Source: an uncultured Verrucomicrobiae bacterium
Lineage (GTDB): Bacteria > Verrucomicrobiota > Verrucomicrobiia > Limisphaerales > UBA11358
DNA length: 64,000 bases
NCBI GenBank assembly: GCA_963842445.1
Contig: CAWJHF010000017.1
Span: 11,706-75,705 of the forward strand
Direction of reading: 5' to 3'
Shown here: piece by piece, positions 7,820 through 59,523 of the stretch
How positions within the stretch are numbered: the stretch's first letter is position 1
Layout: every line of letters starts with the position of its first letter
Made by a program: the position numbers and the translations under genes
Notes under the pieces: generated by a model
Told to the model about the DNA's origin: nothing
The model's database searches: none
The model's input: the letters and a program-made list of their open reading frames with translations, nothing else

Positions 7820-9559
<1,740 letters not shown>

Positions 9560-12746: not shown

Positions 12747-12760
12747 GAATCAAATCCTTG

Positions 12761-12818
12761 ACACGGATTTCACGGATTTACACGGATTGAACCGGTGATA
12801 ATCCGTGCTATCCGTGTC
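12761..12818. repeat. inverted CACGGATT-type repeat hairpin between the ABC ATPase and permease genes
   Basis: Three direct CACGGATT-type copies (the first as gacacggattt), followed by the inverted aatccgtgctatccgtgtc. Confidence 0.8.
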
Positions 12819-14027
12819 TCATTTTGGCTTTCCGAGCAGGGACGACAATTTTTCATCCGCCCTCGACAAATCCGCCGGTTTTTGTTCCGCCTCAGTCTTC
12901 GGTTTTGCCGGGACCGGCGTGGCGGCCTTCGTCAACGCTTCCAGTTTATTGGCATCCATGGCCGGTGCGACCGGAGTCGCCGGTTTGGGTCCGGCGGCGG
13001 GTTGGGCGGCCTGTGGTAAAGCCAGACGCTCAAGAACTTTTTCCGCCGGCGGCCGTTCTTCGGCCCCGGCGCGCAGGTAAGCCGCCACGCGGGCGCCGGA
13101 AAGGGCGCCGCTGGTTTCCGCCGCCGCCTGACGTGCCTTTTGCACCACGTCGAGAAAATAGCTTTCGAGATTTTGCGTCGGATTGTCCACGCGCACCTTG
13201 TCGGCGGCCACGTCGTGGCGGATCACTTCGAGCGCGCGTGCCAGCGTTTCGCGCGGCAACACCGGCGTTGTGATGCGCAGCGTGTCCGGTTCGGACAGCA
13301 ATTCCTTCAGGGTGCCCATCGCCTGCACTTTGCCGCCGTAAAGGATCACAACGCGGTCGCAAACGTCCTCAACGTCGGCCAGCAGATGGCTGCTCAAAAT
13401 CACCGTCTTGCCCCGGCGCGACAGCGCGAGAATGAGGTCCTTCATTTCGTGGCAGCCGATGGGATCGAGGCCGGAAGTCGGTTCGTCGAGGATGATGAGG
13501 TCAGGATCATTGATGAGCGCCTGCGCCAGCCCGATGCGGCGCTGCATGCCCTTGGAAAACTCGCCCACGGAGCGCGTGTGGACCTGGCTCAAGCCAACCA
13601 TCTCGAGCAATTGCGCGGCGCGATTGTTGCGTTCGCCGCTGGACAAGTGAAAAAGGTTGCCGAAAAAGTCGAGTGTCTCGCGCGAGTTGAGGTAGCGGTA
13701 GAGATACGATTCCTCCGGCAGATAGCCGATGCGCGACTTGGTCTGCACGTGCCGCGGCGAATGGCCGAAGACCTCGATGTGCCCGCGCGTCGGATTGAGC
13801 AAACCAAGCAGCAGCTTGACAGTGGTGGACTTGCCGGAGCCGTTCGGACCCAGCAGGCCAAAGACCTCGCCGCGCCGGACTTCAAAATCCACGTTGTCCA
13901 CCGCGCGCGCCTTGGGCCGGTTCCAGAAATCCTTGAACACCTTCGTCAGCCCGCGCACGGAGACGATGACCTCTTCGGATTTTTGATTTCCGGTTTGCGA
14001 TTGCAGATTTAGTTCGGCGACGGGCAT
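12819..14027 (-). CDS. ABC transporter ATP-binding protein with a ~100-aa Pro/Ala-rich C-terminal tail
   Basis: Walker A GPNGSGKST, signature FSKGMQRR, and Walker B LIILDEPTSGLD. Confidence 0.9.
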   Translation of the reverse strand: MPVAELNLQSQTGNQKSEEVIVSVRGLTKVFKDFWNRPKARAVDNVDFEVRRGEVFGLLGPNGSGKSTTVKLLLGLLNPTRGHIEVFGHSPRHVQTKSRIGYLPEESYLYRYLNSRETLDFFGNLFHLSSGERNNRAAQLLEMVGLSQVHTRSVGEFSKGMQRRIGLAQALINDPDLIILDEPTSGLDPIGCHEMKDLILALSRRGKTVILSSHLLADVEDVCDRVVILYGGKVQAMGTLKELLSEPDTLRITTPVLPRETLARALEVIRHDVAADKVRVDNPTQNLESYFLDVVQKARQAAAETSGALSGARVAAYLRAGAEERPPAEKVLERLALPQAAQPAAGPKPATPVAPAMDANKLEALTKAATPVPAKPKTEAEQKPADLSRADEKLSSLLGKPK

Positions 14028-14045: not shown

Positions 14046-16061
14046 TTACGCCAGTTTCGGTGTCAGTTGGCCGGTTGCGCGACGCGGCGGTTCTTCCGTT
14101 TCGGGATGGAAATGTTCCAGCTCCTCGCCTTTGCGCACGAGGCGCGCGCTGTTGAAAATCACGATGAACGTGCCAATGACGTGCAAAATGGCACCGGTGA
14201 CCGGGCCGAACAAGCCGAACGCCCCAGCCGACTGTCCGGCGATGATGAAGCAGATCCCAAAAGCGAAGTTCTGATTGATGATCGCGCGCGTGCTGCGCGA
14301 AAGTTTCACCAGAAACGGCAGCCGTTGCAGGTCGTTGTTCATCAGCGCGATCGTCGCACTGTGGATGGCCACTTCACTGCCCGCCGCGCCCATCGCGATA
14401 CCAAGGTCGCCCGCCGCCAGCGCCGGTGCGTCATTCACGCCGTCGCCGATGACCGCGACCCGGTAACCTTTCGCCTTCATGGTGCGGACAAACTCAACCT
14501 TGTTCTGCGGCAGGCAATCGCCCTTTGACTCCTCGCAACCGATTTCCGCCGCGACCCGGCTGGCCACCAGTTGGCGGTCGCCGGAAATCATTGCAATGCG
14601 GCGCACACCCGCTTCCTTTAATTCGGCCAGCGCAGTTTTGGCTTCCACGCGCACTTGATCCTGCAAGCCAACCCAGCCGATGCAGCGGTGGTTGCGGGCG
14701 ACGAAAATCAGACTCCAGCCTTCAGCCTCGTCGAGGTCAACCGATTTGAGAAAATCCTCGGCGACGCCGTTGTCCTTGAGCCATTGCGCGCGGCCCACCA
14801 AAACTTTTGCGCCATTGATTTCCGCCTTCACGCCGCGGCCGGCGGTTTCGGAAAAATCCTTCGGCTCGGCCAGCGGCACGCCTGCCTCGCCGGCAAGTTG
14901 CGCAAGCGCCTTGGCGGTTGGATGGTTGCTGTATTTTTCCGCCGAGGCGGCGACGCGCAGCAATTCGGCGGGCTTCGTTTCGCCGATGGGTGCCAAGCGG
15001 CTGACAGCGAGCTGGCCTGTCGTGAGCGTGCCGGTCTTGTCAAAGATGAACGCGTTGATTTTCGCGGCGGCCTCGATGTCGGCGACGTTCTTGATCAAAA
15101 TGCCGAGGCGCGCGGCGGCGGACAGCGCGGCGACCATCGCGGTCGGCGTCGCCAGAATGAAAGCACAGGGACAGGACATGACGAACACGGTGATGACGCG
15201 GTTGATGTCGTGGGTGAACGCCCAAACGAGCGCGCCGATGACCAGCGCGAGCGGCGTGTAATAGCCCATGTATTGGTCCACGATTTTCATGATGGGCAGC
15301 TTGGTCTTCTCGGCGGCGAGAATCAGCTCGCGCACGCGGCCCAGTGTCGTGTCCTCGCCGGCGCGGCTGACCTTGACTTCCAGAAGGCCGGTCAGATTTT
15401 GCGTTCCGGCAAAAACCTCGTCGCCGGTCTTTTTGTCGGCGGGCAATGATTCGCCGGTGATGGTCGCCTCGTTGAACGAGCCTTGCCCGCTGACGATGAC
15501 GCCGTCGGCCGCGACATTGTCGCCGGGGCGGATGCGAATCACGTCGCCCACGGCGAGTTCGCTGGCGGCCACTTCCTCCTCGCCGCCGTCTTTTTTGACG
15601 CGGCGCGCCCTGGTGGGGGTGAGTTTGATGAGCGATTCGATGGATTGGCGCGCGCCCTCGGCGGTGCGTGTTTCGATGAGTTCGCCCATGAGCATCAAAA
15701 AGGCGATGAGGCCGGCGGTTTTGTAGCCCGCGCTCATGTTGTTGCCGAATGCGCCGGACGCGAACGCGAAGAGCACAGCAATGGCGACAAGTTCATTGAT
15801 GCTCAGCCGGCCGATGCGCAAATCCTTGATAGCCGTGACCACGATGGGATAGATGAGAATGATCGCGCCGATCATGGCGCTGGCGCTGGCCACCATCGTG
15901 CCCTGATTAAACAGCCAGTCCACGACGAAGGCGTTCAGGACGAAAACGATGCCCGCGACGGCCTGCCAGAGATGCACGACGGAATGCTCGTGGTCGTGGC
16001 CGCTGCCACACTCCGGCTTGTGCTCGTGTTCGTGGCGGCTCAAAAGCGATGTAACCTGCAT
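14046..16061 (-). CDS. P1B-type heavy-metal-translocating ATPase (Zn/Cd/Co-like) with a His-rich N-terminus and no HMA domain
   Basis: CPC motif (MSCPCAFILATP), DKTGTLT, GDGVNDAPAL, and N-terminal HEHEHKPECGSGHDHEHS. Confidence 0.9.
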   Translation of the reverse strand: MQVTSLLSRHEHEHKPECGSGHDHEHSVVHLWQAVAGIVFVLNAFVVDWLFNQGTMVASASAMIGAIILIYPIVVTAIKDLRIGRLSINELVAIAVLFAFASGAFGNNMSAGYKTAGLIAFLMLMGELIETRTAEGARQSIESLIKLTPTRARRVKKDGGEEEVAASELAVGDVIRIRPGDNVAADGVIVSGQGSFNEATITGESLPADKKTGDEVFAGTQNLTGLLEVKVSRAGEDTTLGRVRELILAAEKTKLPIMKIVDQYMGYYTPLALVIGALVWAFTHDINRVITVFVMSCPCAFILATPTAMVAALSAAARLGILIKNVADIEAAAKINAFIFDKTGTLTTGQLAVSRLAPIGETKPAELLRVAASAEKYSNHPTAKALAQLAGEAGVPLAEPKDFSETAGRGVKAEINGAKVLVGRAQWLKDNGVAEDFLKSVDLDEAEGWSLIFVARNHRCIGWVGLQDQVRVEAKTALAELKEAGVRRIAMISGDRQLVASRVAAEIGCEESKGDCLPQNKVEFVRTMKAKGYRVAVIGDGVNDAPALAAGDLGIAMGAAGSEVAIHSATIALMNNDLQRLPFLVKLSRSTRAIINQNFAFGICFIIAGQSAGAFGLFGPVTGAILHVIGTFIVIFNSARLVRKGEELEHFHPETEEPPRRATGQLTPKLA

Positions 16062-16074
16062 ACAAATTTTTGAA

Positions 16075-16102
16075 TTTCGATTTACGATTTACGATTTTAC
16101 GG
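16075..16102. repeat. ATTTACG-type heptamer array between the HflK-like gene and the ATPase gene
   Basis: tttcgatttacgatttacgattttacgg, read directly from the sequence. Confidence 0.8.
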
Positions 16103-21167: not shown

Positions 21168-23711
21168 TCAGGCCATCACCCGCGCGATGGAATTCCACCA
21201 CACGTCGTGCAATTCAGTCATCGGTGCACTGAGTTCGCCGGCAGCGGTCCTAATGGCCAGCTTGTCGCCGCCGACTTTGCCGATTTGAATTGCCGGAACA
21301 CCCATCAATCTCGCGCGTTCGACCACTTTCACCGCGTCAAGCGGTCTGCACGTGATGACTACGCGGCTTTGCGTTTCGCCAAATAGCAACGCGTCGAGAC
21401 GCAACGCAGGACAGGCATCTTGCCCGCCTCCATTTTTTAAATCAGTTTGAGACAGGCTGGAAGCCTGTCCTACGGCCGTCAAATCTACCGTCGCGCCAAT
21501 CAGCCGTGGTGTCTCGCGCGCGACGAGCTGGCTGATGCAGCTTTCGGCCAGACACACCGCCAGGCCGCCTTCACTGCAATCGTGGGCGCTTTTCACCAGA
21601 CCACTTTGGATGAGTCCGAGCAGCGTTGTGTGCAATGTCTTTGCGGTTTCCAAATCACAGCGTGGCGGCGTGCCGGTTTTTTTGCCGTGAACGACTTGCA
21701 GATAAGCCGAACCGCCGAGACCGAGCAACGGATCGTTTGCATCCACCGCGTCACCGAGCAAAATGATCGCGTCGCCATCGTCCTTGAACCATTGCGTCGT
21801 GACGTGTTCCGGTTTTTCGATCAGGCCGACCACCACCACCGTTGGTGTCGGGTCAATCGGGCCGTTCGGGCTTTGATTGTAAAGTGAGCAATTGCCGCCG
21901 GTGACGGGCGCATTGAACGCCCGGCACGCGTCGGCCAGGCCGCGCACGGATTCCTTGATCTGCCAGAACAAATCCGGCTTGAGCGGGCTGGGCATATTGA
22001 GGTTGTCCGTCGTGCCGAGTGGCACCGCGCCGGAACAAGCCAGATTGCGGCAGGCCTCGGCCATCACGATCTTCGCGCCTTCGTAAGGATCGAGATAGAC
22101 GTAGGTCCCGTTGCCGTCCACCGACAATGCAATCAACTTTGTGGGAAAGGCATCCTGCCTGTCTCCATTTTCATTTTTAATTTGAGACAGGCTGGAAGCC
22201 TGTCCTACGTCGGGCAACGAATCTTCCTTGATACGCAGCACCGCCGCGTCGCTGCCGGGGCAGACGACCGAGCCGTCGCGAACCATGTGATCGTATTGGC
22301 GGTAAACCCAGTTCTTCGATGCAATCGTCGGCCACGCCAGCAATTTCAGCAGATCGGAGATGGGAGATTGGGAATCGGGAATTCCATCCAACCGGAACGC
22401 GCGGACCTCCTTCAAATACTCCGGTTCACGCGATTCGGGATGATATACCGGCGATTCGTCGGCGATTTTCTTCGCCGGTATGTCGGCGACAATTTTCCCA
22501 CCATGCCGCACGACCATGCGGCCGGTATCGGTCACGCTGCCGATTTCCGACCACGGCAAGTCCCACTTGTCGAAAATGCGTTTCACTTCCTCTTCGCGGC
22601 CTTTGTGGACGATGATAAGCATCCGCTCCTGCGATTCCGAGAGCATAATTTCGTAGCTGCTCATGTTCGGTGCGCGTTGCGGGACTTTGTCCAACTCAAT
22701 CTCGATGCCGGTGCCGGCACGCGCGGCGGTTTCGCAAGTCGAGCAGGTCAATCCTGCCGCGCCCATGTCCTGAATCCCCGCGACGGCGCCGGTGGCCAAC
22801 AGCTCAAGGCACGCTTCACACACGAGCTTTTCCATGAACGGATCGCCGACCTGCACCGCGCCACGCTGTTGTTCGGCGGATTCCTCCGTCAAATCCTGCG
22901 ACGCAAACGCCGCGCCCGCGAGGCCGTCGCGGCCAGTGGCGGGGCCGACATAAAACACCGGGTTGCCCACGCCTTTGGCCGCGCCGCGCGCGATTTGTTC
23001 GTGCCGCAGCACGCCGAGGCAGAAGGCGTTTACGAGCGGATTGCCTTCGTAGCTCTTGTCGAAATAGACCTCACCCGCAATGGTCGGGATGCCGAAGCAA
23101 TTGCCGTAGTGCGCAATGCCGGCCACGACACCGGCGAACAACCGGCGGTTGTTCAGAACTTCGGATCGGGGAGCACACGCGCCCTCGCGTGTTGTGGTCG
23201 GCGCCTCGCCGATCACTTCGGCCGGCGCGGTCTTCTGCTCGGCGGGGGCGCAGAGCGGTGCACGCGAGGCGCGTGCGCTCCCCATTTCAATTCCGTTCTC
23301 GGTAATCGGCCCAAAACGCAGGGAATTCACCGAGCAAATCGGCCGCGCGCCCATCGTGAAAATGTCACGCACGATGCCGCCCACGCCCGTGGCCGCGCCT
23401 TGGAACGGCTCGACCGCGCTCGGATGATTGTGCGATTCCATCTTGAACGCAATGGCCAGACCGTCGCCGATGTCAATGATGCCGGCGTTCTCCTCGCCTG
23501 CCCCGACGAGGATTTTTTTGGATTTGGTGGGGAACGTTTTCAGCAACGGACGCGTGTTTTTGTAGCTGCAATGCTCGCTCCACATCACCGAGAAGATGCC
23601 CAGCTCGGTATAACTCGGCTGGCGGCCGAGGAGACGCTGGATGTTGGCATATTCCTCCGGCGTGAGGTTGTGTTTGGCAACCAACTCTGGGGTGATGGCG
23701 GGTTCGGTCAT
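21168..23711 (-). CDS. purL: phosphoribosylformylglycinamidine synthase subunit PurL, with three extra in-frame segments
   Basis: [35 protein letters not shown], and other PurL hallmarks. The ORF is 847 aa, compared with the ~740 aa I recall for Bacillus PurL. Confidence 0.9.
21409..21473. repeat. palindromic element family A, copy 1 (inside purL)
   Basis: Core tttgagacaggctggaagcctgtcctacg at 21446-21474 is identical to 22181-22209. The hairpin is gacaggc-tggaa-gcctgtc. Confidence 0.9.
22149..22209. repeat. palindromic element family A, copy 2 (inside purL)
   Basis: Same 29-nt core. In addition, cctgcctgtctc (22154-22165) is the inverted partner (11 of 12) of gagacaggctgg (22184-22195), across an AT-rich loop. 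Confidence 0.9.
23168..23283. repeat. palindromic element family B (inside purL)
   Basis: Arm ggggagcacacgcgccctcgcgtg (23168-23191) pairs with inverted arm cacgcgaggcgcgtgcgctcccc (23261-23283), with one mismatch and one indel. The spacer is about 69 nt. Confidence 0.85.
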
Positions 23712-24268
23712 TTCAATTTCCCTCGCAATTTCTTCGCGGACAATGCGAGCGCGGTTTCATAGCCGCCCCCGAATGCAAGTCGCGTTATGTCCTTCAAATT
23801 GAATTTCATTTTACCACTCCACTTTGCACTGGGATTTAAATCGTAAATCACGAGTGTTTTCTCGGTGAATCCAGCGAGCGTTCCAATCCAGCAAGCGTCA
23901 TCCTCAACCAATTCCTTTTCGATAGTAACAAGTGAAAATTTTTTGCTGGCGGATTTAATGGCTTCTTCGAGTGACGAGATGGAAACGCCAGGATGAATTG
24001 GCTTTAGTCCGTTCATATTCGCCGCTTTGTTTTGCCAGCAGCCTTTCTTGTCGAAAACCCTTTGGTGCTTGACGTCCTGCTCACGAATCACGACGTAGCC
24101 ATTCAGGGTGAATGTGTTCCACTCAAGCAGATGCAGTAGTATCAAGGAATCGTTGAAATCCAGAACAAACCCAGCGATTCGCTCATTAATTCGCGGGCGG
24201 CGATCAAGCTCAATTAAGTATTTCCTTTCCTGACAGCGTCGAAGCAAAGCTTTGAACTTCGGGTGCAT
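23708..24268 (-). CDS. orphan hypothetical protein embedded between purQ and purL
   Basis: 186-aa ORF starting 8 nt after the purQ stop. Its stop overlaps the purL start. It is visibly AT-richer than its neighbours and carries no motif I recognise. Confidence 0.6.
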
Positions 24269-24276
24269 ATACGTGA

Positions 24277-24987
24277 TTATGCCGCTTTCGCCACAGTTTT
24301 CTTTTCCAGCGCGGTAAAGATGCTTTCAAAAATCCATTTGCCTTCGTCGCTGCCTAACACCGGTTCGCTGGCGCGTTCGGGATGCGGCATCAGGCCGGCC
24401 ACGTTGCGGCGTTCGCTGCAGATGCCAGCGATGTTCTGCACGGAACCGTTGGGATTCGCGGTGTCGGTCAGGTTCCCATTGGCATCGCAGTATTGCCACA
24501 GGATTTGGTTGCCCAGCTTGAGCCGGGCGAGCGTTTCTTCATCCGCGTAATAGCAGCCTTCGCCGTGGGCGATGGGAAGTTTCAGCCATTTGCCCGGCGG
24601 AATTTTGTTCGTGAACGGCGAATCCGGCGTGGCGGTTTTCAGGAAAATGTGTTCGCAGTGGAACTGCAAATCGCGGTTGCGGATGAGCGCGCCGGGCAGC
24701 AGGCCGGCCTCGGTAAGCACTTGAAAGCCGTTGCAGATGCCAAGCACCAGCCCGCCGTTGTCGGCGAATTGTTTCACGGCCTGCATCACCGGGCTGAACC
24801 GCGCGATGGCGCCGCAACGCAGATAATCGCCGTAGCTGAATCCGCCAGGCACGATGACGGCGTCGGCAACGCCGAGGGAATTTTCCTTGTGCCAGACGTA
24901 ACGCGCCGAATGGCCGAGCAGCCCGATGGCGTGGATGGCGTCCTGGTCGCAGTTGCTGGCGGGGAATTGTAAAACAGCGAAGTTCAT
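24277..24987 (-). CDS. purQ: phosphoribosylformylglycinamidine synthase subunit PurQ (glutaminase)
   Basis: VPGGFSYGDYLR and GICNGFQ (catalytic Cys), plus a MPHPER-type C-terminal motif. Confidence 0.9.
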   Translation of the reverse strand: MNFAVLQFPASNCDQDAIHAIGLLGHSARYVWHKENSLGVADAVIVPGGFSYGDYLRCGAIARFSPVMQAVKQFADNGGLVLGICNGFQVLTEAGLLPGALIRNRDLQFHCEHIFLKTATPDSPFTNKIPPGKWLKLPIAHGEGCYYADEETLARLKLGNQILWQYCDANGNLTDTANPNGSVQNIAGICSERRNVAGLMPHPERASEPVLGSDEGKWIFESIFTALEKKTVAKAA

Positions 24988-25074
24988 TTATGATTGATGA
25001 TTTATGATCTATGATTTACGCGCAAACCGGCGGGCGATCCGCCAATCATCAATCGTAAATCATAAATCATAAAT
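24988..25074. repeat. two oppositely oriented arrays of ATT[TG]A[TC]G heptamers flanking a GC-rich core
   Basis: Left arm is 24988-25020 and right arm is 25043-25074, around the core cgcaaaccggcgggcgatccgc. It lies between purQ and purS. Confidence 0.85.
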
Positions 25075-30100: not shown

Positions 30101-30168
30101 GTAGGAGCTGGGGTAACGAGGCTCAAATTTTTGCGGTTCATTTAGAGCCTCCTAACGTCGGCTCCTAC
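30101..30168. repeat. palindromic element family F
   Basis: gtaggagctggggtaacgaggctc ... gagcctcctaacgtcggctcctac: inverted arms with a mismatched centre and an AT-rich loop. Confidence 0.8.
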
Positions 30169-40167: not shown

Positions 40168-41526
40168 TTACAACCCGCGCAACACTTTCGCGGCCGCGGT
40201 GACCGTTTTTTTAATATCCGTCAACATGTGCGCGGTGGAAATGAAACCGGCCTCGAATTGCGACGGTGCGAGATAAATACCTTCGTCCAGCATTCCGTGG
40301 AAATACTTTTTGAACCGGTCGCGGTCACTTTTCATCGCATCGGCCAAGCTCCAGACTGGTCCACTTGTGAAATACACGCAAAACATTGAGCTGCAACGGT
40401 TAAACGTAACGGCCACGCCGGCAGACTTTGCGGCGTCCTTCATGCCGGTTTCAAGTTGCGCGCCGAGTTTTTCGAGCTGGTCATAAACGTTCGCTTCGGA
40501 GGGCGGAGTTCCACGACGCCCTGACTTGGTTTCGAACTTCTTTTTAGCGGCTCGCGGAGTTCGTCCCTCCGACAACTCTTTGAGGGCCGCGATGCCCGCC
40601 GCCATTGCAACCGGATTGCCGCTCAACGTCCCGGCCTGATAAACCGGTCCCAGCGGCGCGAGCAAATCCATGATGTCGGCGCGTCCGCCGAACGCGCCCA
40701 CCGGCAAGCCGCCGCCGATGACTTTGCCGAACGTGGACAAATCCGGCGTGATGCCGAAACGTTCCTGCGCGCCGCCGCGTGCCACACGGAAACCCGTCAT
40801 CACTTCGTCGAAAATCAGCAACGCGCCGCTGGCCCTTGCGATTTCTCGGAGAAATTCCAGATAGCCCGGCTTTGGCAAATAAACTCCGGCGTTGCCCGGA
40901 ACAGGCTCAACGATGATTCCGGCGATTTGATTTTTGTTCGCGTTAAACGCGGCCTTCACCGCGTCAACATCGTTGAACGGCAAAACGATGGTGTGTTGCG
41001 TGAATGCCGCGGGCACACCGGCACTGTCAGGATTGCCAAACGTGAGCGCGCCGGAGCCGGCCTTCACGAGCAACGAATCCGCATGGCCGTGGTAGCAGCC
41101 GTCGAATTTGATGATTTTGTCGCGCTGGGTGAATCCGCGCGCAAGCCGAATCGCGCTCATGCACGCTTCCGTTCCCGAATTGCACATGCGGACTTTCTGC
41201 ACGCTCGGCACGAGCGAACAAATCATCTTCGCCATCGTGACTTCGTAAGGATTCGGGATGCCGAAGCTTGTGCCTTTTTCAGCGGCGGCCTTGACGGCGG
41301 AAATGATTTTCGGATGGGCGTGGCCGAGAATCGCCGGCCCCCAGGTGCAGACGTAATCAATGAATTCGTTGCCGTCCACGTCCCAGACGCGCGCGCCCTT
41401 GGCCCGGTTGACGAAAAATGGCCAGCCGCCGACGGCGCGGAAGGCGCGCACGGGCGAATTCACACCGCCGGGAATGTATTTCAGCGCCTCGGCGAACAAC
41501 GCTTCGGATTCGGCCCATGAATTCAT
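40168..41526 (-). CDS. hemL: glutamate-1-semialdehyde 2,1-aminomutase, with one extra in-frame segment
   Basis: [21 protein letters not shown], and FDEVMTGFR, with the PLP-Lys context [11 protein letters not shown] at 41526. Confidence 0.9.
40497..40571. repeat. palindromic element family C (inside hemL, 75 nt)
   Basis: cggagggcggagttccacgacgcc...gcggagttcgtccctccg. The ends ggaggg and ccctcc pair. The arm gagggcggagttccacgacgcc recurs at 50242-50263. Confidence 0.85.
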
Positions 41527-42053
41527 TGCCGTGGTGGGAAAAACGTTTCCTGCAACGAACCCTTCTCGGTGCGGATGACCATGCCGACGCTGATGTTGTG
41601 CCGCGTGAACCAGCCGTCGCTGGTTTCGAGAACGTATAAGATGTTGTCGTTGGTGGCCACGACAGGAATGTTGTCGTTTTTTTCCAGATGATGAATCTCC
41701 TCGATGGCGCCGTCGGGACCGATGTAGGCGGCGGACAGCGACACGGGACAATTGGTCATCCAAAATCCGTTCGGCGCGCGCAGCGCCTCTGGAAGCACAA
41801 ACAGCATGGCGCTTTCATCGGTGACGTTGGTGCGGAACATCATGCCGGTCTGCTGCTCGCGCGGGGTGAGCGCCTGCTCGGCGTCCAGCGTTTCCGCGCC
41901 GAGATAAATTTTCATCGTCGGCAGTTTCGGCTGTGCCTGTTTTGGCAGCAAATTGTCAATGGTCGGCGGTTTGGCGGCGGCTTCGCCGGATTTTTTGCAG
42001 CCGGTCAATAATGCCGCGGTTAAAAACAACGCAATGAATCCTGTCAGTTTCAC
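41523..42053 (-). CDS. DUF192-family lipoprotein
   Basis: GTG start; lipobox LLTGC; GMMFR...MLFV...FWMTNC...LS.AYI is the DUF192 pattern. It overlaps the hemL start by 4 nt. Confidence 0.7.
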
Positions 42054-49218: not shown

Positions 49219-49295
49219 GCGCCCGTAGCTCAGATGGATAGAGCATCTGCCTTCTAAGCAGAGGGTCCCGCGTTCGACTCGCGGCGGGCGCGCCA
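49219..49295 (+). tRNA. tRNA-Arg (anticodon TCT), CCA encoded
   Basis: GCGCCCG-TA-GCTCAGATGGATAGAGC-A-TCTGC-CTTCTAA-GCAGA-GGGTC-CCGCG-TTCGACT-CGCGG-CGGGCGC-G-CCA, folded by hand. Confidence 0.9.
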
Positions 49296-49302
49296 CTTTC
49301 CA

Positions 49303-49338
49303 TTTACGATTGCCGATTTACGATTTACGATTCATTCG
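49303..49338. repeat. ATTNNCG heptamer array directly upstream of the DHPS-like gene
   Basis: atttacg attgccg atttacg atttacg attcatt. The stretch gattgccgatttacgatt is identical to the reverse complement of 517-534. Confidence 0.85.
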
Positions 49339-50228: not shown

Positions 50229-50240
50229 CCGCCCAAAATC

Positions 50241-50300
50241 AGAGGGCGGAGTTCCACGACGCCTTGATAAAATCAGGGACTCACAGAGCTCGCCCCTCCG
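50241..50300. repeat. palindromic element family C copy spanning the 3' end of the methyltransferase gene
   Basis: agagggcggagttccacgacgcc...gagctcgcccctccg. The last 7 codons and the stop codon of the minus-strand gene lie inside it. Confidence 0.8.
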
Positions 50301-51303
50301 AATTGCGGCAAAGGAACACCCCTTCCTCTTCGGATTTAGTCATCCATTGCCCGCAGACCTCCAAACCATACCGACCAAGAACCACTTGAACTCGCTCCGG
50401 CGTATAACGATACGAGAAGAAAAGCCGGATGGCTTCGCCGGCACGAAAATCAAATGCCTCGTTTTCAATTTCGATCCGGCACGGGCGTGTAAAATGAAAC
50501 TTGGCCACAATGCGTTTCAAGCCGCTGGCTGAATCAGTTTCGATTTTGAAGCGCAGCTTGCCGTCACTGCGCTCGACACCAAGATCGAGCAGAAACATCA
50601 TCAGCCAGTCACGCGTGAGCGGATTGTCGTATTGCGGCAAAACCCTTTTCACTCCGGCGGCATAATTTTTGCCCGGCGCCAGATTCGCGCTCAACAGCAG
50701 AAAATCCTTCGGACGAACCAACGATACGAGCTTCGGCAAAACCTGCTTCGGCTCAAAGTTCGGAATCATGCCGAAAAAAGTGACGAGTGACGGCGTAAAG
50801 CCGCGTGGCGGCCACGCCGCTATACGCGGGTGACGCGTGACGAGAGCTTTGCGCAAATCATCCGCCGTTGCCAGATCGCAAACGAATGGGAAACAATTTT
50901 TCTCCAGCACGACTGCCAGTGCAGTCTGGCGGGCGGTCAAAACCATCGCGGTGCTGACGTCGCACGGCATGTAGAGCACTTCCTTGCCGTGGGCTTTCAG
51001 CAGCTTCAGCAGACGCATATCCTTTTGCCCGCCGCCGCAGCCTAAGCCGATGACCTGAACGCTCTTCGCTGCGATCCGCGCAGCAGCAGCCTTGAAACCT
51101 TTTTCATATACCGCCTGACAATCCGTGTCATTCCACGCCGGCGAATACGTTTGGTGCAGCGCCAGCCATTTTTGGGTTTGCCTGATACTGTCGTAATGAA
51201 ACTTGTGGTTCACGCGCCGCGTGCGCAGCGACTCCAGCAAATCGCGGCGGACCGTGTCGGGAAACTGGCTGCGGTGAATCGTGACGTTGGTGATGGTGCT
51301 CAT
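50281..51303 (-). CDS. SAM-dependent methyltransferase resembling the EgtD/Methyltransf_33 family
   Basis: GLGCGGGQKD (SAM-binding loop), FFGMIPNFEP, and a C-terminal substrate-domain-like pattern. Weak recognition by eye. Confidence 0.55.
   Translation of the reverse strand: MSTITNVTIHRSQFPDTVRRDLLESLRTRRVNHKFHYDSIRQTQKWLALHQTYSPAWNDTDCQAVYEKGFKAAAARIAAKSVQVIGLGCGGGQKDMRLLKLLKAHGKEVLYMPCDVSTAMVLTARQTALAVVLEKNCFPFVCDLATADDLRKALVTRHPRIAAWPPRGFTPSLVTFFGMIPNFEPKQVLPKLVSLVRPKDFLLLSANLAPGKNYAAGVKRVLPQYDNPLTRDWLMMFLLDLGVERSDGKLRFKIETDSASGLKRIVAKFHFTRPCRIEIENEAFDFRAGEAIRLFFSYRYTPERVQVVLGRYGLEVCGQWMTKSEEEGVFLCRNSEGRAL
50774..50844 (+). repeat. GTGACGN heptamer element (family G) with an internal hairpin, inside the methyltransferase gene
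   Basis: 50774-50791 is identical to 7961-7978, and 50828-50844 matches 7979-7995 at 15 of 17 positions. The extra 36 nt in between contain gcgtggc-g-gccacgc. Confidence 0.9.
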
Positions 51304-57658: not shown

Positions 57659-58762
57659 TCATTTGTTTGCGGCCAGGGCTGGATGCGCACCCACTATAGC
57701 GGCGCTCTGTGAGCGCCGGTCTTTCGTTCGGCGGTCATGGACCACCGCTACAGATTCCCGAAAAGCAACCGCGCACCATAACGCGCCGGTCACCAGCGAA
57801 AGCGCGCCGACCAGCACGTGCGCTGTCGCCACGTCGGCGGCCTTGTTCGACCAGATGGTCCACGCGCCGAGCGCGATCTGCCCCACAATCAGCGCCAGCC
57901 AAAACACCGCCAGCCGTGTCAAAGAATCCTTTTTACCGAGACGACGCCACGCCTGTTGGACGCATGCCGCGACGCCGATGAAGATCGCCAACGCCACAAT
58001 GCGATGCACCATTTGCAATATGATTTGAAACGCCGTGATCGGGTTTTCAGAAATGACCTCGATGCGGTCAGCGTTGTAGCGAGCAACGGCGGCGGCGCTC
58101 GTGTCCGGCCAGATTGCTCCGTAGGCGGTCGGAAAATCGGGGATTGCCAGGCCGGCGTGCCGGTGTCGCATCGTCGCGCCGAGAATCAGTTGCCCGAAAA
58201 TCAAAATCGTCGTTGCCAGCACGAGCCAACGGAGCGCAGCCGTCCCGGCTGCACCCGGCGAATTCGTGCGGTCAGGCAGGCGGGACGCCTGCGCTACGTT
58301 CTGCCACCAACGGCAGGTGAACAGCGCCAAAGCACAAATCAAAACGAAGAACAATTGCGCGAGCGCGCCGTGAACGATGCCGAGTTTGTCCAAGTGCAGC
58401 GTCACGCGCAGGCCGCCGAGGACGCCCTGCAGCGCAACCAGCACAAACGCGAGTACGCCGAGCCACCGCATCCATTGGCGCGAATCCTTAAACCAGAGCC
58501 AGACCGCAAGCATCGTCGTCAAAAGGCCGATGCCCGAAGCCAGCAGGCGGTGCGTGTGCTCGTAAAAAATGCCGCCCATCCATTTTGAAACCGGAAACAA
58601 AAACATGTTGTAACCGTAGGTGTTCGGCCAGTCCGGCACGGACATGCCGGCTTCGTGGCTGGTGACCATGCCGCCCGAGCCGAGCAGCAAAAACGTGGCG
58701 GCGGCGGTCACCACGATAAACCGGTGCAGCCACGGATTGTAATTTTGCGCATTCGCATTCAT
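57659..58762 (-). CDS. ctaA: heme A synthase (COX15/CtaA family)
   Basis: GGMVTSHEAGMSVPDWP, EHTHRLL, and HRHAG...MVHRIVA are paired His-containing helices. Confidence 0.85.
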   Translation of the reverse strand: MNANAQNYNPWLHRFIVVTAAATFLLLGSGGMVTSHEAGMSVPDWPNTYGYNMFLFPVSKWMGGIFYEHTHRLLASGIGLLTTMLAVWLWFKDSRQWMRWLGVLAFVLVALQGVLGGLRVTLHLDKLGIVHGALAQLFFVLICALALFTCRWWQNVAQASRLPDRTNSPGAAGTAALRWLVLATTILIFGQLILGATMRHRHAGLAIPDFPTAYGAIWPDTSAAAVARYNADRIEVISENPITAFQIILQMVHRIVALAIFIGVAACVQQAWRRLGKKDSLTRLAVFWLALIVGQIALGAWTIWSNKAADVATAHVLVGALSLVTGALWCAVAFRESVAVVHDRRTKDRRSQSAAIVGAHPALAANK

Positions 58763-58812
58763 ATCAAAAAACGGCAAACCCCGGCTCGCGCGCGGGGTTG
58801 CCAAACTTGACG

Positions 58813-59523
58813 TTATTTGACTGCAAAAGTGAAATTCACGGTCACATCGCTGTCCTTCACTTCCACGTCCTGCGTCTGTGAACCGAGCTTGCGGTGGTCG
58901 GCCTCTACGGTGTATTTGCCGGGCGGCACGTTTTTGATGACGAATTTGCCGTCTGGGCCGCTGACGCAAAAGTAAGGGCTGTCAATGACGCTCACCCAGG
59001 CGAACATCCACGGATGCACGTCGCATTTGAATCTCAAGAACATCTCCGGTTTCGGAAAGGTGTAGGTCAAATCCGCGCCGCCGGGCATCTGCGCGTCGTT
59101 GTGCTCGTCGTTGCCGACCACGGTGGGCGTGCAGTGGACGTTGTGGATGCAGTTGTCGGAATTTTTGACGACCAGTTTCTGGCCGGTCTGGATCGCCAGG
59201 ATTTGAGGCTCATACAAACAGCCCTTTTGGTCGAGCACGACGGCTGGTGCGCTGGCGCCAGTGGATTTGCCGGTGACGCCCTTCAGCGAAACCACCACGT
59301 CGGCTAGTTCACCCTTCGGTCCGACGACATAAAAATGCGTTGTGGGCGTGGTTTTGTGCATCGCCGCACAATCCGCATTGTCCATGAGCGGCGCGATGGG
59401 GATTTCCTGCGGCGGCGTGCCTTTGAGGATGATGGTGCCAATGATGTCCGCCCCGCGCGCGGCCGCCGCGACGGCCAGCATCGCGGTCAACAGCAGAACC
59501 AGAGAGAATTTTATGTCTTTCAT
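58813..59523 (-). CDS. secreted cupredoxin-like (type-1 copper) protein with a C-terminal CarboxypepD_reg-like beta-sandwich
   Basis: Signal peptide; NVH...FKCDVHPWM (an amicyanin-like C-x2-H-x2-M ligand set); C-terminal GKFVIKNVPPGKYTVEA. Confidence 0.6.
   Translation of the reverse strand: MKDIKFSLVLLLTAMLAVAAAARGADIIGTIILKGTPPQEIPIAPLMDNADCAAMHKTTPTTHFYVVGPKGELADVVVSLKGVTGKSTGASAPAVVLDQKGCLYEPQILAIQTGQKLVVKNSDNCIHNVHCTPTVVGNDEHNDAQMPGGADLTYTFPKPEMFLRFKCDVHPWMFAWVSVIDSPYFCVSGPDGKFVIKNVPPGKYTVEADHRKLGSQTQDVEVKDSDVTVNFTFAVK

Follow-up and report, generated by a model that had tools for sequence, protein, structure and literature searches.

Within a 64,000-nt stretch of DNA from an uncultured Verrucomicrobiae bacterium (contig CAWJHF010000017.1, assembly GCA_963842445.1; hereafter the window), we analyzed three palindromic inserts in purL, the gene for subunit II of phosphoribosylformylglycinamidine (FGAM) synthase, two of which have the architecture of repetitive extragenic palindromic (REP) dimers. 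An original prediction, made from the sequence of the window, had pointed to a 29-nt hairpin element repeated exactly within the gene and read twice in one frame. Sequence search and translation of the open reading frame (ORF) bore this out. The element, TTTGAGACAGGCTGGAAGCCTGTCCTACG, occurs at 21446-21474 and at 22181-22209 on the plus strand, 735 nt (245 codons) apart and with no third copy in the window; none of 100 dinucleotide shuffles gave a match when three mismatches were permitted. Wider similarity extends over ~74 nt (21409-21482 versus 22144-22217) at 81% identity. The gene and its inserts are as follows.

21168..23711, minus strand: purL (FGAM synthase subunit II, small PurL), an ORF of 2544 nt encoding 847 amino acids (aa), host of the three in-frame inserts
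23168-23283, minus strand: 116-nt G+C-rich palindrome at PurL site 1 (within aa 138-185, ...TREGACAP), unrelated to the REP dimers
22141..22208, minus strand: REP dimer at PurL site 2 (aa ~502-524), from sequence and fold
22186..22208, minus strand: canonical REP unit of the site-2 dimer, GTAG GACAGGCT TCC AGCCTGTC, with an 8-bp stem and a 3-nt loop
21406..21473, minus strand: REP dimer at PurL site 3 (aa ~747-769), from sequence and fold
21451..21473, minus strand: canonical REP unit of the site-3 dimer, with the same sequence as that at site 2

Anatomy of the purL inserts

Each copy of the repeat belongs to a 68-nt inverted pair of GTAG-tagged REP hairpins of the form GTAG-GACAGGC-N-TCY-N'-GCCTGTC, the architecture of a REP dimer (REP doublet forming a hairpin, REPIN). 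On the sense strand, both dimers begin with GTAG-GACAGGCTTCCAGCCTGTC, that is, GTAG followed by GACAGGC-TTCCA-GCCTGTC, continue with an A-rich 22-nt spacer, and end with an inverted second unit, GACAGGCAGGATGCCTTTC-CCAC at site 2 and GGCGGGCAAGATGCCTGTC-CTGC at site 3. In the first units, GTAG directly abuts the 5´ side of the stem (21470-21473 and 22205-22208). The second units read GACAGGC-AGGAT-GCCTTTC-CCAC at site 2 and GGCGGGC-AAGAT-GCCTGTC-CTGC at site 3, where the stem uses two G-U pairs that exist on the sense strand only; their tags are degenerate (GTGG and GCAG, respectively), unlike those of orthologous copies, whose far ends carry the canonical CTAC. The REP unit is open in five of its six reading frames, with a TAG in forward frame 2 only. 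As expected of an inverted REP pair, each dimer can fold either as two small hairpins or as one long hairpin. The long hairpins on the sense strand have predicted energies of -42.5 and -33.5 kcal/mol (z = -6.1 and -5.2 versus shuffles), and the element gave z values of about -5 to -6 whichever strand was folded. A palindromic, hairpin-forming element had thus been identified correctly, while its GTAG tag and REP-dimer architecture had gone unrecognized.

The unrelated palindrome at site 1 had been overlooked altogether. It has terminal inverted repeats of 23-24 nt (GGGGAGCGCACGCGCCTCGCGTG / CACGCGAGGGCGCGTGTGCTCCCC), lacks a GTAG tag, and folds at -84 kcal/mol (z -6.8).

Pfam identified the FGAR-AT_linker, AIRS and AIRS_C domains in PurL, and the protein aligned with Thermus thermophilus PurL (PDB 3VIU, E 1e-167) with interruptions at aa 138-185, 497-526 and 727-774, which correspond to the three inserts relative to solved PurL structures. 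The 847-aa length noted in the original prediction can be set against the 725 residues of 3VIU; Bacillus PurL has ~740 aa. The 245-codon spacing of the two copies, to which that prediction had drawn attention, signifies nothing beyond the fact that both are in frame. We considered whether it mirrors the internal symmetry of PurL and rejected this idea: site 2 is a hairpin that opens the second AIRS repeat, and the second AIRS_C domain contains site 3, so that, judged from the sequence, the two sites appear to be non-equivalent positions of the two homologous halves of the protein.

A dispersed REP family and its association with RAYT genes

We scanned GTDB (one genome per species, 596 Gb, both strands) with the pattern GTAGGACAGGCNNNNNGCCTGTC, leaving five loop positions free. 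The scan yielded at least 120 stretches with at least 163 matches, compared to a chance expectation of ~17 by our own arithmetic from 18 specified bases (4^18). Among the matches listed were many metagenome-assembled genomes (MAGs) of Verrucomicrobiota, together with Acidobacteriota, Planctomycetota, Chloroflexota, Cyanobacteria, Nitrospirota and others, and the majority were inverted dimers with their tags facing outward. The spacer ends GTCTCcat...ttaGAGAC are common to the window and to verrucomicrobial dimers. The first and last of the free loop positions (N1 and N5) formed Watson-Crick pairs in 159 of the 163 matches listed (GC 82, AT 37, TA 27, CG 13), where 25% would pair by chance. This covariation indicates that the selected structure is an 8-bp stem with a 3-nt loop, a short palindrome maintained by compensatory changes as is typical of REPs. 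Matches fell on multiple contigs of single verrucomicrobial MAGs, including JBEKMU01 (loci L014, L034 and L206), WYBW01 (L048, L087 and L120), VHDE01 (L027, L053 and L109) and CAINDV01, and the 64 kb of the source genome hold two GACAGGC dimers and one related unit. The original prediction had allowed that similar inserts might occur in PurL of unrelated phyla, or that the element might have no other genomic copies and its duplication be an assembly artefact. Neither applies: many further copies were found, and independent assemblies share it. We also noted that the GACAGGC/GCCTGTC stem with a GTAG tag forms dimers in multiple copies in at least eight phyla, that their loop variants partly track the genome, and that at least eight loci among the matches listed come from a single MAG labelled Caldilinea aerophila.

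At many loci a long ORF continues through the GACAGGC element. For six of them, Pfam domains flank the insert or the insert lies inside one domain match:

L102: glutaminyl-tRNA synthetase (GlnRS), by Pfam
L038: PurM, by Pfam, with the encoded insert VGQASRLSPSKKTSQVRDRQDACPT
L043: ABC ATPase, by Pfam
L088: DnaE, by Pfam
L115: class-III aminotransferase, by Pfam
L045: valyl-tRNA synthetase (ValRS), by Pfam, with a RAYT-like gene within

RAYTs (REP-associated tyrosine transposases) are linked to the family in two other genomes; further work on REPIN-RAYT systems is reportedly that of Nunvar (2010) and Ton-Hoang (2012). In L045 (VFJO01000280.1, Verrucomicrobia MAG Bin_73_16), a 204-aa ORF lies between two direct GACAGGC-family REPs. 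Its product matched the NCBIfam model REP_Tyr_transpos (E 8e-18) with 64.7 bits, under the 80-bit cut-off, matched Pfam Y1_Tnp with 24.7 bits, over the cut-off, and gave a weak match to Escherichia coli TnpA-REP (4ER8). A homologue with 37% identity is found in L008, from Cylindrospermum, between inverted GACAGGC-family REPs, the arrangement of a classical REPtron. The protein database contained 2860 homologues of the L045 ORF, many of them named RayT and several from bacteria of the PVC group. At L045 the RAYT-like gene and its flanking REPs (97-2340) are in frame and stop-free within a variable loop of ValRS bordered by GHRIPVWYKKD and QDSDVLDTWFSS. Another ValRS, at L208 (2102-5341, protein P0163), likewise carries a RAYT in this loop; the RAYT is 51% identical to the first, but the contig is so full of frameshifts that the ValRS::RAYT frame there cannot be judged. 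The RAYT linkage in L045 and L008 suggests that a RAYT may have moved the purL copies.

As a separate observation, RayT homologues among proteins P0150-P0224 are often single ORFs fused to host domains, such as S-adenosylmethionine (AdoMet) decarboxylase (PF02675) with Y1_Tnp in at least 12 clusters, D-Tyr-tRNA deacylase with Y1_Tnp, and a B12-binding domain with Y1_Tnp. REP-encoded peptides are present at fusion joints, for example IVGRASRP...GRDAPSTP in P0162. These cases could be read-through annotation or real fusions.

Occupancy and turnover of three PurL loops

The history of the inserts was examined in ~200 PurL orthologues and in the DNA of 80 metagenomic purL loci and six orthologues, with the three insert sites located in distant PurLs by MAFFT-based mapping. 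The closest PurLs, from Verrucomicrobiota/Limisphaerales, are 79-87% identical and range in length from 799 to 927 aa. The alignments show a near-invariant core and three hypervariable sites, so that the inserts lie in variable loops. All three loops are empty in other phyla among the ~200 orthologues: in PurLs at 45-57% identity, site 1 comprises 3 residues and site 3 comprises 6-8, and the closest empty alleles have ~9-10 at site 2. Among close relatives, L124, with 88% identity in the core, is free of palindromes at all three sites. Site 2 is empty in L124 and L207 and holds another REP family in L121, L122 and L206, while site 3 has only 6-8 aa in L123, L124 and L126. The empty loops in distant PurLs and in L124 indicate that the inserts are insertions rather than ancestral sequence.

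The loops are hot spots. Of the 120 closest orthologues, 106 carry an insert at site 1, 101 at site 2 and all 120 at site 3; the GACAGGC family accounts for 25 of those at site 2 and 38 of those at site 3. Across Limisphaerales the occupants comprise at least 10 recognizable palindromic families, plus simple tandem repeats at site 1; Chthoniobacterales-like PurLs (~60% identity) carry REP families of their own in sites 1 and 3. The site-1 palindrome family of the window also appears at site 2 of L171 in the opposite orientation, and its arms show 100% identity between the window, L121 and L203 despite differing neighboring synonymous sites. At site 3, different GTAG families sit at one nucleotide position (...ACx GCx | GTAG...CTAC | x (TTG) CGx CTC GAC; for example L121 and L205). 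No flanking direct repeat, and hence no target-site duplication of the kind that marks a MITE (miniature transposable element with inverted repeats), was seen at ~10 inspected copies, and the junctions showed no target motif other than a single base by which the palindrome is extended (C|GTAG...CTAC|G).

Between genomes, dimers of one family at a given site share 83-97% identity, compared to 58-74% at fourfold-degenerate sites of the purL core. Within a gene, the dimers share a genome-specific loop: the window, L202 and L204 pair TTCCA with AAGAT or AGGAT, and L203 has GTCGC together with GCGAC (site 2) or GCGCC (site 3). The pairs of families at sites 2 and 3 are reticulate, namely (G,G), (G,C), (P,G), (P,C) and (empty,G'), where G, P and C are three families, and site 2 varies within groups that are closest at synonymous sites. 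From these patterns we infer long residence at a site, homogenization within genomes and occasional replacement in place.

Several features point to translation of the inserts. No intragenic copy contains a stop codon, orthologous copies vary in length by whole codons (for example, by two additional codons in P0086), and the sense-strand spacer is A-rich, giving Lys, Asn, Glu and Ser codons, in nine of nine intragenic verrucomicrobial dimers irrespective of element orientation. These are marks of selection acting through translation, and the inserts are therefore probably translated. An AlphaFold model built from 149 sequences (pTM 0.70) had a target-normalized TM-score of 0.83 to 3VIU; a model from only 31 close orthologues was unusable (mean pLDDT 31). 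In the former, the inserts show pLDDT values below 50, lack regular secondary structure, and are bracketed by confident elements. Site 2 (residues 502-520) is modelled as a low-confidence excursion with strands 490-494 and 525-532 on either side, and site 3 (residues 751-767) falls between strand 740-743 and helix 772-777 of an otherwise very confident domain. Site 1, a long low-confidence stretch without secondary structure, is the weaker point, with the N-terminal half modelled less well. The model suggests that the inserts are surface-exposed, and they may be neutral for the enzyme.

With Rfam 15, only two tRNAs reached gathering score in the window, and the elements remained below it (miRNA-precursor hairpins at 20-27 bits versus cut-offs of 56-107). 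We also considered the antisense hairpin and its T-run as an intrinsic terminator and rejected this candidate: a simple scan raised no flag because the T-run begins only ~5 nt past the stem.

Further palindromes and neighboring features in the window are listed here.

58276-58297: single related GTAG REP unit GTAGCGCAGGCGTCCCGCCTGC, in frame in ctaA/COX15 (57659..58969, minus strand), read VAQASRLP
40496-40572: another palindrome family, the third in the window, in frame in hemL (40168..41763, minus strand)
50239-50305: second copy of the hemL palindrome family, between convergent genes
30101-30168: GTAG-ended intergenic palindrome, GTAGGAGC...GCTCCTAC, between convergent genes
12760-12818: intergenic palindrome, GACACGGATT...ATCCGTGTC, between two minus-strand ORFs
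513-550, 9107-9151, 13979-14009, 16059-16096, 24986-25074 and 49288-49332: sites of the A+T-rich motifs AATCGTAAATCG / CGATTTACGATT
23708-24268: 186-aa ORF without a Pfam match, between purQ (24277-24987) and purL, with a 4-nt overlap at the start of purL

A small second hairpin, GCAGCCGGGACGGCTGC, follows the REP unit in ctaA/COX15. The Pfam Aminotran_3 match in HemL ends ahead of the palindromic insert, and the copy at 50239-50305 encodes the C-terminal NSEGRAL* of a 340-aa ORF (50281..51303). The recurrent A+T-rich motifs are short and tandem or palindromic; the copy at 24986-25074 lies directly upstream of where purQ starts, and that at 49288-49332 separates a tRNA from the following ORF. 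In relatives, this motif is translated in PurL site 1 (...SEIANRKSQIANN), and L140 has 43 aa of QSTIRNP repeats there. As for the 186-aa ORF, purQ abuts purL directly in L204, a genome from the same sample, and the upstream genes differ in other orthologues.

Origin and significance of the purL inserts

The GTAG- and CGTC-tagged REP superfamilies were defined, and GTAG REPs tied to RAYTs, by Di Nocera, De Gregorio and Rocco (BMC Genomics 14:522, 2013; PMC3733652). In that study, the verrucomicrobium Opitutus terrae had more intragenic GTAG REPs than any other genome, more than half of them were dimers or groups encoding 20-30 aa, and some genes were hit twice. One of these, Oter_3711, encodes a phosphoribosylformylglycinamidine synthase with two GTAG-17 dimers, at aa 878-893 and 1017-1032 (PMC3733652, Additional file 3). 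The phenomenon is thus known in this phylum and for the enzyme of this reaction, which refutes the suggestion in the original prediction that such inserts are undescribed for this kind of genome. The purL copies resemble the O. terrae elements in phylum, in the GTAG tag with a short stem-loop, in forming in-frame, inverted intragenic dimers of ~16-30 residues, in occurring twice in one gene, and in the frequent reading of GTA-GGx as Val-Gly (VGPALAAG in O. terrae, VGQASSLS in the window); many REP peptides in Additional file 3 begin with VG. In contrast to O. terrae, which belongs to Opitutales and has a 1438-aa large-form enzyme, the source genome is Limisphaerales-like and encodes a small PurL of the two-subunit type, and the insertion sites therefore differ. 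GACAGGC and VGQAS are absent from the supplementary tables of PMC3733652, and the family could not be placed among GTAG-1 to GTAG-24.

The elements share with REPIN-RAYT systems (Bertels and Rainey, 2011; PMC3116915) the inverted REPs and spacer that form one long hairpin, the single dominant variant per genome, and RAYT genes flanked by the same REP (L045 and L008). Classical REPINs, however, are extragenic and mostly proteobacterial, whereas many copies here are intragenic, with the RAYT linkage coming from other genomes. Both GACAGGC dimers of the window lie inside purL, but an extragenic location is a naming convention more than a mechanistic criterion, with intragenic REPs documented in PMC3733652. 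The comparison with Rickettsia palindromic elements (RPEs) made in the original prediction was right in kind, as RPEs are also in-frame palindromes in conserved and presumably functional genes whose added peptide is thought to be surface-located (Ogata et al., 2000, cited in PMC3733652). By description rather than alignment, the purL copies fall outside that family: they are 68 nt long with a GTAG tag, whereas RPE-4 and RPE-6 are of CGTC type (PMC3733652), RPE-1 is longer (~100-150 bp), and the hosts are reduced intracellular alphaproteobacteria. MITEs such as Correia/NEMIS, ERIC, RUP and Nezha likewise are short, non-autonomous and hairpin-forming with inverted ends, and some are intragenic, but they derive from DDE-type insertion sequences and generate target-site duplications, unlike the purL copies, with their GTAG-tagged REP hairpins at the ends and no duplication.

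We consider it probable that the purL copies are RAYT-associated GTAG REP dimers that occupy permissive loops in frame, are translated, are near-neutral and are replaced in place. Such elements are non-autonomous and thought to be moved as single-stranded DNA hairpins by RAYTs, transposases of the IS200/IS605 Y1 type. In a Limisphaerales-like verrucomicrobium, copies would have landed in PurL loops tolerant of extra residues. Those with element and junctions in frame, without stops and with a sense-strand spacer encoding hydrophilic residues would have survived, transcribed and translated as floppy surface loops of ~23 residues that are neutral or nearly so for the enzyme. An occupied loop would then remain occupied while its tenant changes, with REP families replacing each other at one nucleotide position, and copies within a genome would come to share a loop variant via gene conversion or re-insertion from the dominant copy of that genome.

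Some observations sit less easily with this interpretation. A tblastn search found no RAYT gene in the 64-kb window, and to our knowledge RAYT-driven REP transposition has never been demonstrated in vivo in any organism. The bare dimer of 68 nt is not a multiple of 3 and is read as 23 codons with one extra base, and some host loop residues are missing relative to empty alleles; the events thus were not simple clean insertions. In both window copies the second unit has a degenerate tag and an imperfect stem, and these copies therefore may no longer be mobile. Moreover, the near-100% occupancy of site 3 exceeds what a purely neutral process of insertion and filtering predicts.

The high occupancy, with site 3 filled in 120 of 120 close orthologues, is what would be expected if selection favored the hairpins for a role in the purL gene or its mRNA, such as pausing translation where domains meet, acting as RNase or stability elements, or binding gyrase or another protein, with the repeats serving as raw material. 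Nucleotide conservation above the synonymous-site level, hairpin covariation, the position of site 2 at the start of the second AIRS repeat and the sense-strand-only G-U pairs of the site-3 copy are in line with this possibility. Recognition by a transposase predicts the covariation equally, however, and the same loops are occupied by unrelated sequences, including simple tandem repeats, while L124 and other verrucomicrobial PurLs have no hairpins. The GACAGGC REP also is found in many unrelated genes and between genes, and the elements gave only sub-threshold generic hairpins in Rfam, with no terminator- or promoter-like flag; we thus regard selection for such features as improbable. Derivation of one purL copy from the other, by intragenic duplication or gene conversion instead of two insertions, is improbable as well. 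The 29-nt identity between the sites is in line with it, and the genome-specific loop variants shared by both copies (TTCCA in the window, L202 and L204; GTCGC in L203) point to sequence exchange or a common recent source. Gene conversion may homogenize copies but cannot originate them; no purL flanking sequence was duplicated alongside the copies, the family is at one site only in L205, L206 and L207 (where site 2 is empty), and its dispersal through unrelated genes, intergenic DNA and other genomes refutes a sole intragenic origin.

We give very little credence to the possibility that the inserts are missing from the mature protein, through removal from the mRNA or through ribosome bypass as in phage T4 gene 60 and the mitochondrial 'byp' elements. 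Although the hairpins within the coding region are strong and the evidence for translation of the inserts is indirect, each intragenic copy examined is in frame and stop-free, with length differences of whole codons as in P0086, and the A-rich hydrophilic spacer codons found in nine of nine dimers would be unneeded in a segment that is removed or bypassed. The chance that a repeat was collapsed or spliced into purL during assembly is negligible. The window does come from a metagenome assembly (ENA ERZ25039540 contig_36812, 505,909 bp), and the frameshift-ridden L208 is a contig of the same project series. Independent JGI, ENA and NCBI assemblies nonetheless place the family at the same PurL positions in L202, L203, L204, L206 and L207 (one site only in the last two), which, with the purL frame intact throughout, effectively refutes an artefact.

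Returning to REP dimers in permissive loops, a further and rather unlikely extension is that the PurL loops are self-perpetuating landing pads, in which a resident GTAG hairpin draws the next REP, families succeed each other in place by RAYT-mediated exchange or conversion, and an insert is seldom lost cleanly. If this were true, loops of essential genes would be safe havens for REPIN populations, with the RAYT inside ValRS at L045 as the extreme case, and Verrucomicrobiota would have a distinct intragenic REPIN-RAYT lifestyle that steadily supplies new surface loops on housekeeping enzymes.

The analysis reveals no new kind of element or mechanism. What is new is the GACAGGC-stem REP family, unlisted in the PMC3733652 tables, its presence in Limisphaerales-like genomes, and the evidence for three loops that are recurrent hot spots, where families turn over and nucleotides are more conserved than at synonymous sites; the earlier study did not analyze the turnover of many families at such hot spots across orthologues.

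REPs are extragenic by name and have been studied almost solely in Proteobacteria. Here, in an uncultured lineage of Verrucomicrobiota, they frequently reside in frame within housekeeping enzymes, and within a single 64-kb window purL (with three inserts), hemL and ctaA are all decorated by palindromes. Such inserts lengthen proteins and disrupt domain models, with Pfam splitting AIRS and truncating the HemL match, and can mislead annotation and orthologue alignment in Verrucomicrobiota MAGs. The PurL orthologue series, with three loops, at least 10 families, and empty and filled alleles among close relatives, constitutes a natural experiment that could be used to gauge how proteins tolerate random loop insertions, to date REP gains, losses and replacements, and to test whether resident REPs attract new ones.

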